DNA from: Minisyncoccia bacterium
GTDB taxonomy: Bacteria > Patescibacteriota > Minisyncoccia > Phycocordibacterales > DATGWK01
Assembly: GCA_038259265.1 (NCBI GenBank)
Contig: JBBSOY010000001.1
Location: 562 to 64,561, forward strand
Direction: 5' to 3'
DNA length: 64,000 nucleotides
Below the pieces are notes generated by a model. It saw nothing but the letters and a program-made list of their open reading frames with translations, did no database searches and was not told where the DNA came from. Below are positions 58,328 to 63,832 of this stretch, piece by piece. Both the position numbers and the translations under genes were made by a program. The first letter of the stretch is position 1. Each line of letters opens with the position of its first letter.

Positions 58328-59455
58328 ATGAGTAATAAGAACACCAAAAACATGTCAGTTCAAGACCTTGCGGCCAAAAGGAACGGGCTAACTATCGAGA
58401 CCGGAAAGCTTTTGAGTCTTTCGTGGGCAGACTTAAATACTTTTTTATTGGGTCTTTACGAAAAGCGTGTAAGGAAAATAAAACATTCTGACCTTTTAGC
58501 AAACTACACGAGCAACACCTTTTTAAGGGTTTCTGACGCCGATCCAAGAAAAATTAATAGGATGGAAAATCTACTATTTGATACCCTTCCGCCCGATTAT
58601 AAAATTGTAGATATTGCGCCTGTCTCTCCAATTGGAGTTAACACGGTTCTTGCAAAAATTAGTTCCAAAACATCATTATCCACCATAAGGAATATCGAGG
58701 TTTTAAGTGATCCAACTACTCAATTGGCACTTGAAGCAGCGAGAATTAGGGTTTTACACAAAGATATCGACAATGTGAATCTTGCAAGCGCTTGTCGTCT
58801 TTTACGAACTCAAAAATTTGATCCCGCTTCTGGAATGACCAACCACTTCAAAGCTTTTGCCTTGGTTACATCGGGAAAAAATACAGGTGACAGAATATTT
58901 GAATACACTTCCATGTTCAGTCAAATAAAAATTTGGTTAGATTTTTTTAAAAAATCAGAAAATTTAGGATATAAACCAAAAAATATATCCGTTGCAATAT
59001 CTAATATTTCAATAATTAATGAATTATGTAAAGCAAAAATAATAGATAAGAAAAATGTCGTTGAGTCTATACGGTACAATAAAATTAGTATTTTTGAAAA
59101 AAATTCAGTCAGACTGGCAAGAGAGAGTGACGATATTACGGAACTCTCAGATATTCCTTATGAGTTTCTGCAAAATCCAATCGAAACTCTCAAGAGAGCC
59201 GAACTTGATTTTGTGAAAAACCTGCGAGAAATATATCCTGATGTTAAGTTCTATTACAGACTAGACAGAATTGCAGGCAGCACTTTTTACTCTGGCTTAT
59301 GTTTCAAAATCTACGCCGTTGCACCAGACGATAACAAACACGCACTCGTCGATGGAGGAGTTTCTGACTGGAACAAAAAAATTCTTCAAAATAACAAAGA
59401 GATGGTTTTTACCAGTGGATTCGGTAGTGAGTTGTACAGTAAGTTTTTTGACTAA
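58328..59455 (+). CDS. hypothetical protein (375 aa); weak, unconfirmed resemblance to a class II aaRS/ligase-like core
   Basis: Clean ORF in the AT-rich block. TIRNIEVLSDP and TSGFGSELYSKF vaguely recall class II motifs 2 and 3, but with non-canonical residues. Function unknown. Confidence 0.5.
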   Translation: MSNKNTKNMSVQDLAAKRNGLTIETGKLLSLSWADLNTFLLGLYEKRVRKIKHSDLLANYTSNTFLRVSDADPRKINRMENLLFDTLPPDYKIVDIAPVSPIGVNTVLAKISSKTSLSTIRNIEVLSDPTTQLALEAARIRVLHKDIDNVNLASACRLLRTQKFDPASGMTNHFKAFALVTSGKNTGDRIFEYTSMFSQIKIWLDFFKKSENLGYKPKNISVAISNISIINELCKAKIIDKKNVVESIRYNKISIFEKNSVRLARESDDITELSDIPYEFLQNPIETLKRAELDFVKNLREIYPDVKFYYRLDRIAGSTFYSGLCFKIYAVAPDDNKHALVDGGVSDWNKKILQNNKEMVFTSGFGSELYSKFFD

Positions 59456-60456
59456 ACCACCCCTGATTCTGTGATTTCCACTGAAGGTTTGTCAGTATTA
59501 ACCAACACGTTAACACCTAAGGGTATTGTAATAATGGGTACAGTGTGACCAATGTCTAAATCAATAATAGTTGGTATATTATATTTTTCACTAATTTCTT
59601 TAAGCACAGAGTAAATAAAATCCTTCTGAACATCCCCGACGGACAATCTTCCAAAAATTAATGCCTTTATTGAGCTAAATACACCCACTTGTTCGAGATA
59701 CCTAAGATTCCTTTCAATAATCGCGATATTAGTGTCTCCATCCTCTAAAAAAAGAACCTTTCCATTTAAATTGGGCATATACTTTGTACCGATCAAAATA
59801 CAAAGTGTGTTCAAGTTTCCGCCCCACGCATCTCCATCCACAACACCGGCCTTATTTAAAGCAGAATATGTAGCCGCGGGTTTATAGTTTGGAGCTCTAT
59901 TGTCATCTCGGTCCCAGAATAAACTTTCATCAGAATATTTTTCTGGGGTAGTAATCATTCCGATTGGCTCAGTCTTAAAAACAGCTTTCAAAAAATACTC
60001 TTTTGTAAATTCGTTAGCGCCACCAAAAGACCCAAATGACGGCAATGCTGTTGGACCACTAAACGTTACCAAACCAGTCATGTGAGATATTGAGTTTGTA
60101 AGTGCTGCAATATCACTGAAACCGCAAAAAACCTTCGGATTTTGCTCAACAAGGGAATAGTCTAAAAGGTTCAGTAACACATTAGAATTATAGCCTCCCG
60201 TACTACAGATAATTCCTTTAATGGAGTTGTCCATGAAAAAATTATGTATGTCTGCCGCCCTCTCTTCGGGAGTGCCTGCATTGTACTCTTGGGCATTAAG
60301 GGCATTCCCCCCCATAACAATCTCTAAACCTAAATCTTCTGTCATATAGTTTACCGCACGAGAAAGCCGTCTTGGAAAAGAATTTATCCTTGATGAAGGA
60401 CTCACAACACCCACTCGATCCCCTCTTTTTAAATGTTGCGGCTTAATTTGCTTCAT
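59452..60456 (-). CDS. S66-family LD-carboxypeptidase (LdcA / microcin C7 self-immunity MccF-like serine peptidase)
   Basis: 334 aa. GFSDIAAL nucleophile-Ser motif, RVGVVSPSS N-terminus, C-terminal His/Glu region typical of S66. Confidence 0.75.
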   Translation of the reverse strand: MKQIKPQHLKRGDRVGVVSPSSRINSFPRRLSRAVNYMTEDLGLEIVMGGNALNAQEYNAGTPEERAADIHNFFMDNSIKGIICSTGGYNSNVLLNLLDYSLVEQNPKVFCGFSDIAALTNSISHMTGLVTFSGPTALPSFGSFGGANEFTKEYFLKAVFKTEPIGMITTPEKYSDESLFWDRDDNRAPNYKPAATYSALNKAGVVDGDAWGGNLNTLCILIGTKYMPNLNGKVLFLEDGDTNIAIIERNLRYLEQVGVFSSIKALIFGRLSVGDVQKDFIYSVLKEISEKYNIPTIIDLDIGHTVPIITIPLGVNVLVNTDKPSVEITESGVV

Positions 60457-62250: not shown

Positions 62251-62410
62251 ATGGAAATACTTTTTTTCTTTTGCTAACTCAAAAACCTTTTACTAAAGTC
62301 TTTACTCGCATATTGAATCACGTTTAAGATCGGTGGATATATATTATTACCGAGATAACTAATTATCTTTTTACCATCCTCGATGCTCGCTTTGTAGGGT
62401 CCGTATAAAC

Positions 62411-63832
62411 TCATTTTCTTATAAAAAGTGGTTCGGGTTTTGAAATAATATCCTTAGTGAATATATCCAGGATCCTTTGCGAAGTCTCGGGCAAGAAGGG
62501 TTTCAGCAATAACCCTATTACAATTAAACCTTCGATATATTCCTTTAATGTTGCGGAAAGTTCTGCAATAGACTCTGTTTCCCATGGTTTATCTTGTGCC
62601 ATTTTTTGATCTAAAACCGTTATTTTTGACCAAATGTAACGCAAGGCTTCGTCTGGTTTATGTGAATCAAAGTATTCTGCAATTTTGGCATCTTTAATAG
62701 ACATTGTTTTCTCAATTTCTGCAGGATTATGAGGTAACTTCTCTGACAGTTTTGCGATTCGAGATACAAGATTCCCGATACCGTTCGCCAAATCGTTGTT
62801 ATATTTATCCCTAAATCTTGAAAGTGAAATATCTCCGTCCTTACCAAATTGGAATGATGTTATCAGTAAATATCTTACTGCATCAGTGCCGTACTCTTTA
62901 ATCAAATCCATTGGGTCAATCACATTACCAAGAGATTTTGACATCTTTTGCCCATCTATTGTAAAAAAACCATGCGCAAAAACCGCCTTTGGTAACTCAA
63001 GGTCATTAGCAATCAGCAATCCTTCCCAAACAAGAGCATGGAACCAGAGAATGTCCTTGGCCATAAGATGAAGCGTGGGTGGCCAAAAGTCTTTCCTGTC
63101 TTGGTACATTTGCGTTGCTGAATAATAGTTGATCAACGCATCAACCCACACATACACAGTATGTTTCCTATCCCAAGGAACTGGTATCCCCCATTCAATT
63201 CCAACGCGAGAGATTGAGACATCTTCTATTCCTTGCCTTATTTTTCCGATAATCTCATTTCTTCTTTCCTCTGGAAAAACAGAGTAAGTATTTTTTTCTA
63301 ATTCAGCAAAAACTTTCGCGGATAATTCCTTAAGTTTCAAAAAATAGTTTTCCTCTTCTTGCTCAACAGGCTTAAGATTAGGGTGGAGAATACATACACC
63401 ATTTACGATTTCCTCGAAAGAAAGAAATTTTTCACATCCGATACAATATGTGCCCTTATATAACGCTTTGTAAATTAAGCCTTTATCAAAAATTTTCTGA
63501 AGAAAGTCTTGGACAATTTTCTTGTGTCGAGGGTCAGTTGTGCGGAAAAATTCATCGTAGCTGATGTTAAGATTCTGCCACACATCCTTATATTGAGATG
63601 AAATCTTGTCGGTAAACTCTTGCGGGTAGATGTTGCTCTTTGCAGCAGATTGAGCAACCTTTGTTCCATGCTCGTCTGTTCCTGTCAAAAAAAACACTGA
63701 CTCCTTCCCCAACATATCACGATAAAATCGAGCGTATACATCTGCTATAAGCGTAGTATACGCATGACCGATATGTGGCTTATCGTTTACGTAGTATATA
63801 GGAGTTGTTATGTAAAACTTTTTATTTGCCAT
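62411..63832 (-). CDS. metG: methionyl-tRNA synthetase (minimal form, no C-terminal tRNA-binding domain)
   Basis: 473 aa. HIGH motif (KPHIGHAYTT) and KMSKS (KMSKSLGN). AT-rich codon usage unlike most core genes in the window. Confidence 0.9.
   Translation of the reverse strand: MANKKFYITTPIYYVNDKPHIGHAYTTLIADVYARFYRDMLGKESVFFLTGTDEHGTKVAQSAAKSNIYPQEFTDKISSQYKDVWQNLNISYDEFFRTTDPRHKKIVQDFLQKIFDKGLIYKALYKGTYCIGCEKFLSFEEIVNGVCILHPNLKPVEQEEENYFLKLKELSAKVFAELEKNTYSVFPEERRNEIIGKIRQGIEDVSISRVGIEWGIPVPWDRKHTVYVWVDALINYYSATQMYQDRKDFWPPTLHLMAKDILWFHALVWEGLLIANDLELPKAVFAHGFFTIDGQKMSKSLGNVIDPMDLIKEYGTDAVRYLLITSFQFGKDGDISLSRFRDKYNNDLANGIGNLVSRIAKLSEKLPHNPAEIEKTMSIKDAKIAEYFDSHKPDEALRYIWSKITVLDQKMAQDKPWETESIAELSATLKEYIEGLIVIGLLLKPFLPETSQRILDIFTKDIISKPEPLFIRK

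Follow-up and report, generated by a model that had tools for sequence, protein, structure and literature searches.

A candidate agrocin 84- and microcin C-like gene module on a low-GC island of a Minisyncoccia bacterium

The low-GC end of contig JBBSOY010000001.1 (assembly GCA_038259265.1) from a Minisyncoccia bacterium carries a compact set of genes whose three core products are related to enzymes of the agrocin 84 and microcin C clusters: a truncated class II ligase derived from asparaginyl-tRNA synthetase (AsnRS), an S-adenosylmethionine (SAM)-dependent methyltransferase, and an S66 serine hydrolase. The window analyzed here is a stretch of 64,000 nt that makes up nearly all of the 65,319-bp NCBI contig, which ends about 1.3 kb past it. 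From sequence comparison, we conclude that the region is probably a horizontally acquired island with a minimal agrocin-84-like or microcin-C-like module. It is also fairly probable, judged from the same homologies, that the island genes form a module that makes and detoxifies an N-acyl-phosphoramidate nucleotide, an aminoacyl-adenylate mimic inhibiting an aminoacyl-tRNA synthetase (aaRS). The system is of a known kind, that of the agrocin 84/microcin C-type Trojan-horse aaRS inhibitors. Its minimal core, which lacks both MccB and a peptide, and the spread of that core through the candidate phyla radiation (CPR), DPANN archaea, and haloarchaea appear to be new. In the literature covered, which is incomplete, we found no description of the module in Patescibacteria or archaea and no AgnA-like enzyme paired with MccD and MccF homologs outside agn clusters.

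Three core enzymes

A first-pass annotation of the window had described a coupled four-gene operon on the minus strand. We found its four open reading frames (ORFs), metG, ligase, methyltransferase, and S66, at the positions it gave and with the domains it assigned, and we observed both the overlap of the methyltransferase ATG with the ligase stop codon (ATGA) and the 14-nt overlap of the methyltransferase and S66 genes. The 160-nt gap that it placed after metG does not exist: this interval is coding and forms the start of the ligase gene (61279–62414, minus strand), whose ATG at 62414 overlaps the metG stop codon, again as ATGA. A frameshift had been overlooked. One G is lost at about position 62286 (GGG to GG), which breaks the gene at codon 44, and putting one G back yields a 378-aa ORF; homologs are 377 to 385 aa long. 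A second, independent Logan assembly of the same sample (L001) carries the identical deletion. Programmed frameshifting at 62286 was rejected, since there is no slippery heptamer and an orthologue is intact with one extra G.

The ligase matches PF00152, and an N-terminal extension of about 55 aa replaces the anticodon-binding domain. In the predicted structure of the intact orthologue P0002 (pLDDT 88), these 55 residues form a beta-hairpin and a helix with no OB fold, and the top fold matches of the model are the AsnRS structures 9SH8 and 1X54 (TM 0.76–0.78). Hidden Markov model (HMM) searches and structure prediction thus agree with the original description of a stand-alone class II core. The likeness to AsnA or AS-AR proposed with it did not hold up. 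E. coli AsnA and AS-AR share with the ligase a stand-alone class IIb core that lacks an anticodon-binding domain and forms an aminoacyl-adenylate, but the ligase family is set apart from them by its distinct N-terminal extension, an SSPxG insertion, and low scores. Among structures, the family profile scores best against AsnRS 1X54 (113 bits) and reaches only 40 bits against archaeal AS-AR 3P8T, over the C terminus only; NCBIfam AsnA models give the ligase 57 to 111 bits against cutoffs of 309 to 389. Canonical AsnA was rejected on these scores. Canonical AsnRS was rejected as well, because the OB-fold anticodon-binding domain is missing and the score against AsnS models, 134 bits, lies below their NCBIfam cutoffs of 343 and 414.

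In a protein search of plasmids, the nearest named relative was AgnA ("Agrocin84-synthetase") of pAgK84, with 28 to 31% identity over about 325 aa (BLASTP, E 2e-33); AgnA-like genes also lie on Xenorhabdus, Pantoea, Bacillus, and Peribacillus plasmids. BLASTP comparisons of the ligase family with AgnA-like proteins scored 98 to 135 bits in 10 of 12 cases (73 and 86 in the other two), as against 65 to 82 bits with validated AsnRS and 53 to 61 bits with validated AspRS. A signature, SSPxG...D[ST]LPV, is common to the ligase family and the AgnA-like proteins where canonical enzymes have EGGA..F. The residues of the class II ATP-binding and catalytic motifs are invariant across the ligase family. 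AsnRS-type residues occupy two positions, QFYLE and HIEFE, at which two validated AspRS have K-Q and D; we take these positions to be contacts to the amino acid side chain, as in AspRS and AsnRS. The pocket residues do not fix the substrate, because AgnA-like proteins share them and agrocin 84 has no Asn; reading the pocket as proof of Asn as the substrate was rejected.

The methyltransferase gene (60443–61282, minus strand) encodes a class I SAM-dependent transferase of 279 aa. Searched as a single sequence, its best match in the PDB is MccD (5FCD), over the full length at 81.6 bits; a profile of the family scores 146 bits against the same structure (E 1e-41), and all others reach at most 80 bits, over the Rossmann core only. 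Its identity to AgnB1 is 36% over 274 aa (E 1e-56), and a methyltransferase of Xenorhabdus bovienii is equally close at 36%. By these similarities, it is a homolog of MccD and AgnB1.

The S66 gene (59452–60456, minus strand; PF02016 and PF17676) encodes 334 aa. The first-pass annotation had left its grouping between MccF and LdcA to be settled, and the structural scores, the catalytic triad, and a diagnostic Trp all side with MccF. Against structures, the protein scores 182 to 202 bits with MccF-type enzymes and 94 and 52 bits with LdcA; the NCBIfam LdcA model gives 123 bits, with a cutoff of 378. Ser (GFSD), His (GHT), and Glu (FLED) of the triad are present, and the Trp of LFWD aligns with W186 of E. 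coli MccF, the residue that stacks on adenine (PMC8323819). Identity to AgnC5 is 33% over 334 aa (E 8e-62) and to the X. bovienii S66 protein 28%. Among 53 S66 proteins of related loci, described below, Ser and His are present in all 53 and the Trp in 50. Sequence similarity places the protein with MccF/AgnC5 and not with LdcA, which gives no protection against microcin C (PMC9239234, PMC7157772, PMC8323819). Similarity, the W186 equivalent, and the occurrence of the module in archaea led us to reject an LdcA-type role in murein recycling.

Known clusters and related loci

The first-pass annotation held that no such operon had been described. The same core is in fact found on pAgK84 of Rhizobium rhizogenes K84 (agnA, agnB1, agnB2, agnC5) and on an X. 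bovienii megaplasmid. On pAgK84, the order is agnA, agnB1 (a SAM methyltransferase), and agnB2 (a LeuRS), with agnC5 further downstream and NUDIX genes upstream. As in the window, a truncated AsnRS-derived ligase directly precedes the SAM enzyme, an aaRS gene belongs to the operon, an MccF-like S66 gene and a NUDIX gene lie nearby, and the setting is a mobile one, plasmid or island. The two differ in that LeuRS follows the methyltransferase on pAgK84, whereas MetRS precedes the ligase in the window; in the window, moreover, S66 is directly coupled to the methyltransferase, genes for a HisRS-like protein, a HIT hydrolase, and an S51 peptidase are added, and the ligase is a pseudogene. No counterparts of the pentanamide synthesis genes agnC1–C4, C6, and C7, of agnD–F, or of the AgnG pump were recognized in the window. 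Of the agnC–agnG products, AgnC1, AgnC3, and AgnC5 were compared with the island proteins by BLASTP, which gave a sole match, that of S66 to AgnC5, and none to AgnC1 or AgnC3. AgnA is a truncated AsnRS homolog proposed to join a pentanamide precursor to a nucleotide through a phosphoramide bond, and AgnB2 is an agrocin-84-resistant LeuRS that gives immunity (PMC8323819, PMC4392301). Actinobacterial agn-like clusters carry an extra MetRS, and their authors therefore predicted MetRS as the target (PMC8323819, PMC4392301).

The megaplasmid of X. bovienii CS03 (NZ_FO818638.1) carries genes for an AgnA-like protein, a SAM methyltransferase, and an S66 protein, followed by a nucleoside phosphorylase, VOC and GloA proteins, leuS, a ProRS-like "aaRS-related" protein, and an MFS transporter. 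Its core order is identical to that of the window, an aaRS gene (leuS) is plasmid-borne alongside, and the divergent ProRS-like protein resembles those of 23 CPR and DPANN loci. The exporter, the nucleoside phosphorylase, and the VOC/GloA proteins are absent from the window, and the X. bovienii synthetase is LeuRS, not MetRS. To our knowledge, this cluster is uncharacterized. On Pantoea plasmids, the gene after a GNAT::AgnA-like fusion encodes an MFS transporter. In one of them, the P. agglomerans plasmid NZ_CP134735.1 (69234–72057), the 531-aa fusion is annotated only as a GNAT acetyltransferase; with its transporter, it looks like a two-gene synthetase/immunity/export cassette.

Likeness to the microcin C (mcc) cluster lies in the methyltransferase, which resembles MccD, and in the S66 protein, which resembles MccF in its triad and W186 equivalent; related loci add HIT proteins with the MccH signature, S51 peptidases of the MccG family, and an MccE1-like pyridoxal phosphate (PLP) decarboxylase. 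MccD and MccE1 install an aminopropyl group, and MccF (S66), MccH (HIT), and MccG (S51) are immunity hydrolases (PMC9239234, PMC7157772, PMC8323819). The module differs in that an aaRS-derived enzyme replaces MccB and MccA and in that the island has no MccC pump. A motif scan, rather than an HMM search, for the ThiF-type motif of MccB found none in the window and one unrelated ORF (in L065) among 81 related loci. The window has no room for an MccA-like ORF, since the ligase start overlaps metG, and in related loci Asn is the last residue of 15 of 437 short upstream ORFs, with no enrichment and no consistent position. A classical mcc cluster was rejected on these grounds. With an aaRS-derived enzyme in place of MccB and MccA, the product would therefore not be a ribosomal peptide.

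Ligase relatives were sought with two exact peptide patterns in 185,579 GTDB species genomes, one per species. The scan gave 84 confirmed relatives, of which 80 loci were kept. Their distribution is sporadic, and the hosts, unlike those of agn, are Saccharibacteria and other Patescibacteria, DPANN archaea (Woese-, Nano-, Pace-, Micr-, and Aenigmarchaeota), and three haloarchaea (two Natrinema and one Haloarcula). Neighbor families were defined in 77 loci by our own ORF calling and single-linkage BLAST clustering of ORFs at most 7 kb from the ligase. Within this distance, a methyltransferase occurs in 63 of the 77 loci and S66 in 53; in 40 the methyltransferase lies directly downstream of the ligase on the same strand. 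The median gap is 1 nt between ligase and methyltransferase and −4 nt between methyltransferase and S66. Linkage of the three genes is thus far beyond chance.

Other recurrent neighbors are ProRS or divergent ProRS-like proteins (23 loci), LysRS/AspRS/AsnRS-type proteins (15), MetRS (5), S51 peptidases (4), ATP-grasp ligases (3), and PLP decarboxylases of the MccE1 fold (2). In all, 71 of 1061 ORFs encode an extra aaRS or aaRS-like protein, spread over 56 of 81 loci. Some of those beside the module are truncated paralogues. A 668-aa LeuRS-like protein in L038, L066, and L084, apparently without a CP1 editing domain, scores 294 bits against a cutoff of 677, and short LysRS-like proteins of 414 to 444 aa in L012, L013, L016, L019, L020, and L078 score 214 to 275 bits against cutoffs of 428 to 468.

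Loss of the ligase is not confined to the window. Elsewhere, the ligase gene has independent nonsense or frameshift lesions in 8 of 77 loci (L007, L018, L027, L028, L042, L063, L065, and L079), as compared with 1 of 40 for the methyltransferase and 2 of 53 for S66. The positions differ; in L007, a stop replaces the invariant Gln of ESSQFYLE. Neighboring methyltransferase and S66 genes are intact where this can be checked (e.g., in L007 and L042). The ligase bias of these lesions fits a costly or toxic synthetase, as a trend that is not statistically strong. Selenocysteine or other recoding of the in-frame stops was rejected, because in L007, L018, L028, L042, L063, and L079 they are TAA or TAG at differing positions. 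Separately, the ligase genes of L026, L029, L037, and L058 (Gracilibacteria-, Peribacteria-, and Vampirococcus-type loci) have multiple in-frame stops. Those of L026 and L029 are TGA, several aligned with Gly, as expected under a code in which UGA specifies Gly; the codons of L037 and L058 were not examined.

The mundane alternative that the first-pass annotation had set beside its proposal, Asn biosynthesis plus murein recycling, would make the ligase a non-canonical AsnRS or AsnA-type synthetase supplying Asn or Asn-tRNA and the S66 protein a murein-recycling enzyme, with the methyltransferase unrelated to either. It draws on the database records that name some family members asparagine--tRNA ligase, on the AsnRS-like QFYLE and HIEFE positions, on the genuine aaRS genes that the module adjoins, and on the tandem AsnC/Lrp-type regulators that lie divergently upstream in eight loci; in E. 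coli, asnC is placed likewise relative to asnA. It conflicts with the missing anticodon-binding domain, with the sub-cutoff scores of the ligase (134 against 343 bits for AsnS and 111 against 389 for AsnA), and with an S66 protein of MccF type (123 against 378 bits for the LdcA model). In L057, a true AsnRS (441 bits, cutoff 414) lies two genes from the ligase family member; the module occurs in murein-free archaea; and sporadic occurrence, low-GC islands, repeated pseudogenization, and relatives that have metG without the module are further points in the same direction. A housekeeping AsnRS or AsnA was rejected on the cutoffs, the missing domain, the adjacent true AsnRS, the sporadic distribution, and the island GC, and we regard the housekeeping explanation as a whole as the least probable of those weighed here.

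The island, its hydrolases and metG

GC content is about 0.46 to 0.50 in the native DNA (wider native range, 0.44–0.51), falls to 0.35 to 0.40 at about 56.1 kb, and stays low through the window end. The low-GC island (56100–64000, no strand assigned) thus runs to the end of the window, and GC at third codon positions (GC3) falls with it, from 0.43 to 0.54 in native genes to 0.25 to 0.37 in island genes, as the first-pass annotation had supposed in calling the island AT-rich. The junction was rejected as an assembly chimera of this contig alone, since an independent 3-kb Logan contig (L006) crosses it, covering HIT through NUDIX into a native-GC gene. Exact look-ups of the MetRS, ligase, and S66 proteins yielded no DNA past the window. 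L002, L011, L056, and L052 likewise have the module in a stretch of lowered GC. In L052 and L060 (Natrinema gari and N. altunense), the patch, at about 5 to 17 kb of each locus, has a GC content of 0.47 to 0.56 within surroundings of 0.64 to 0.69, and it also holds a full-length LeuRS gene and an ABC-2 type transporter pair between ligase and S66. The ORF list and a domain scan of the window revealed no transporter ORF in 56.1 to 64.0 kb. A known anti-phage defense system was rejected, as PADLOC returned generic domain matches only, and so was carriage by a phage, as an IMG/VR scan confirmed no relative.

HIT and NUDIX genes had been placed immediately downstream of S66. A convergent 375-aa gene intervenes between S66 and HIT, and an S51 pseudogene intervenes between HIT and NUDIX. 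The 375-aa gene (58328–59455, plus strand) has no match in Pfam or NCBIfam; its remote homologs carry PF13393, and its model (pLDDT 80) matches HisZ and HisRS in Foldseek with probability 1.0 and TM 0.56 to 0.59, which identifies it as a stand-alone class II core of the HisRS/HisZ type. Such a core adjoins the module in nine loci. The HIT gene (57675–58076, minus strand; PF01230) encodes a 133-aa hydrolase with a canonical HVHVH triad. Its motif, RVGLAVEGFGVPHVHVHLVP (EGFGVPHVHVH), keeps the third His. The MccH clade has the signature E-x5-HxHxK, in which Lys replaces that His (PMC7157772). HIT genes adjoin the ligase in nine loci, and eight of these read E-x5-HxHxK.

The S51 gene of the PepE/MccG family (56965–57634, minus strand) is a pseudogene: an in-frame TAA interrupts it at about 57410–57412, and the reading frame shifts within an A7 run (about 57297–57303); PF03575 matches its 3′ fragment. 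The window therefore has no intact S51 peptidase of MccG type. Intact S51 genes adjoin the ligase in L035, L036, L042, and L055. The NUDIX gene (56449–56916, minus strand; 155 aa, PF00293, GC 0.40) is the last low-GC gene before native DNA, and its product is 28% identical to a NUDIX-like protein of pAgK84 over 99 aa (E 6e-9). In the window, then, inactivation is limited to the ligase and S51 genes; metG and the genes for the methyltransferase, S66, the HisRS-like core, HIT, and NUDIX have stayed intact. With those two genes disabled, the copy has probably lost the capacity for synthesis, and it may persist as an immunity island.

The main alternative that we considered is an island for resistance or detoxification only, in which the hydrolases S66, HIT, S51, and NUDIX would degrade imported aminoacyl-nucleotide antibiotics of other organisms and the ligase and methyltransferase would modify or reuse the breakdown products. 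Stand-alone homologs of MccF, MccH, and MccG do protect non-producers (PMC9239234, PMC7157772), S66 and HIT are intact in the window while the ligase is broken, and no exporter lies within the island. This account sits poorly with a ligase whose class II ATP-binding and catalytic residues are invariant family-wide and whose gene is translationally coupled, in 40 of 77 loci, to that of a biosynthetic enzyme of MccD/AgnB1 type. We know of no precedent for a detoxifying role of an adenylate-forming enzyme, which also counts against it, and we consider resistance alone unlikely.

The fourth gene of the operon, metG (62411–63832, minus strand), encodes a 473-aa MetRS (PF09334; TIGR00398 429 bits, cutoff 336). 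With a GC content of 0.37 and GC3 of 0.35, against 0.47 to 0.49 and 0.43 to 0.54 in native genes, it shares the composition of the island and therefore arrived with it. It could, on the model of AgnB2, serve as a spare or insensitive copy. Adjacency of metG to the module is lineage-specific and was observed only in the window and its close relatives (L001 and L002–L005). A relative of native GC (0.48) has metG followed by a canonical AspRS gene and no module. Next to the closest MetRS homolog (85% identity) lies an unrelated gene without a match to the ligase family, presumably ArgRS-like as read by eye.

Upstream of metG in the closest intact relative, a 73-aa ORF (L002:1358–1579) without a Pfam match resembles, from a reading of its sequence, the N terminus of an archaeal-type ProRS; its stop overlaps the start of an ATP-grasp gene of L-amino-acid-ligase type (L002:1576–2826). 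The intact operon of L002 (JGI Ga0163151_10000358) comprises genes for ATP-grasp, metG, the ligase P0002, the methyltransferase, and S66; in the contig analyzed here, the region corresponding to the one upstream of metG falls past the window end. A further low-GC relative (L088:3794–8091), whose MetRS is 71% identical, has an S51 peptidase, a ProRS split into 449 and 56 aa, and a 112-aa C-terminal fragment of S66, all within a few kb upstream of metG; together they may be the remnant of a similar module.

Elsewhere in the window, positions 22001 to 26000 form a second GC dip (0.39–0.41) that holds an 842-aa protein with a weak match to an M6 metalloprotease domain and a 204-aa ORF. It adjoins tRNA-Ser(GGA) (27366–27453) and may be another acquired segment. 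A 289-aa ORF (55296–56165, plus strand), antisense to genes of the MscS-like and 3-dmu-9_3-mt families, encodes a low-complexity sequence rich in Cys and Arg; it is almost certainly a shadow ORF.

Proposed chemistry and wider meaning

A synthesis and immunity module is the best supported reading, because the core is homologous to AgnA, AgnB1/MccD, and AgnC5/MccF, has the order found on a proteobacterial plasmid, and travels with MccH-type and S51 hydrolases. What was observed directly is the homology, the order and conservation of the genes, the character of the island, and the gene lesions. The biosynthesis and self-immunity proposed in the first-pass annotation for an aminoacyl-nucleotide compound are favored by an MccF-type S66, an MccD/AgnB1 methyltransferase, an AgnA-like ligase, and a core conserved across phyla and domains.

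The ligase reaction, the acyl substrate, the group transferred by the methyltransferase, and the target are inferred. In the proposed scheme, the AgnA-like ligase would draw on ATP to link a nucleotide, by an N-acyl phosphoramidate bond, to an acyl or carboxamide substrate that resembles an amino acid. Either Asn would be activated, with a succinimide and then the P-N bond formed as in MccB, or the carboxamide nitrogen would be adenylylated directly. The product, a non-hydrolyzable mimic of an aminoacyl-adenylate, would inhibit an aaRS. The SAM enzyme may then decorate it, as MccD adds a 3-amino-3-carboxypropyl group to the phosphoramidate, and the S66 protein would cut the acyl-N bond and so shield the producer. 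HIT and S51 may provide further hydrolytic immunity or clean up products, and accessory aaRS-like ligases, here the HisRS-like core, and co-located aaRS genes would extend the molecule or replace the target.

Several observations weigh against this proposal. The role of AgnA is itself only proposed, with no biochemical activity known (PMC8323819, PMC4392301), and the key ligase step thus stacks one proposal on another. The window ligase is broken, so no product can be claimed here. The island lacks an exporter and recognized genes for acyl, sugar, or uptake moieties, and most CPR and DPANN loci are likewise without an obvious pump. The window HIT lacks the Lys of the MccH clade, and in 19 loci the methyltransferase is of a different, non-MccD type (44 have the MccD/AgnB1 type). 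The window MetRS appears to be of the ordinary CPR/Patescibacteria type, with many CPR homologs of 468 to 486 aa that are 55 to 85% identical to it. Finally, the ligase is 43 to 75% identical across loci whose neighboring aaRS types differ, which speaks against the neighbor simply naming the target.

The same enzymes might instead modify a macromolecule or metabolite. Here the truncated aaRS would transfer an amino acid to a protein or an RNA nucleoside, addition of an aminocarboxypropyl or methyl group would fall to the MccD-like enzyme, and the S66 hydrolase would undo the mark. Paralogues of aaRS without an anticodon-binding domain modify EF-P (EpmA) and tRNA-Asp (GluQRS), the locus is rich in translation genes, and it has no exporter, all of which fits. 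The nearest relatives of all three core proteins, in contrast, belong to antibiotic clusters, MccH-type phosphoramidases and S51 peptidases co-occur with the module, and an island-like, sporadic distribution is unlike that of a core translation modification. We consider such a role very unlikely.

Returning to a module for toxin synthesis and immunity, the AgnA/AgnB1/MccF-like core is a compact coupled unit in about 80 species-level genomes, besides enterobacterial and Bacillus plasmids. Clusters of this kind are invisible to mining for microcin-C-type systems, because MccB serves as the query. We tentatively raise the possibility, which we think more doubtful than the assignment of the module itself, that the three-gene core suffices by itself to make aminoacyl-adenylate-mimic toxins, with no need of a ribosomal peptide or of MccB; that it has spread horizontally among ultra-small episymbionts (Patescibacteria and DPANN) and haloarchaea; that the variable aaRS neighbors (Met, Pro, Lys, Leu, Gly, Cys, and Asp) mark targets or extensions; and that the products are used on hosts or competitors. 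If so, archaea would have their first predicted nucleotide antibiotics directed at an aaRS. The module offers a minimal system for studying the phosphoramidate-forming chemistry of AgnA-type enzymes. It predicts natural aaRS inhibitors in lineages credited with almost no secondary metabolism, and it may account for some of the extra or truncated aaRS genes that have been puzzling in the genomes of Patescibacteria, DPANN archaea, and haloarchaea.

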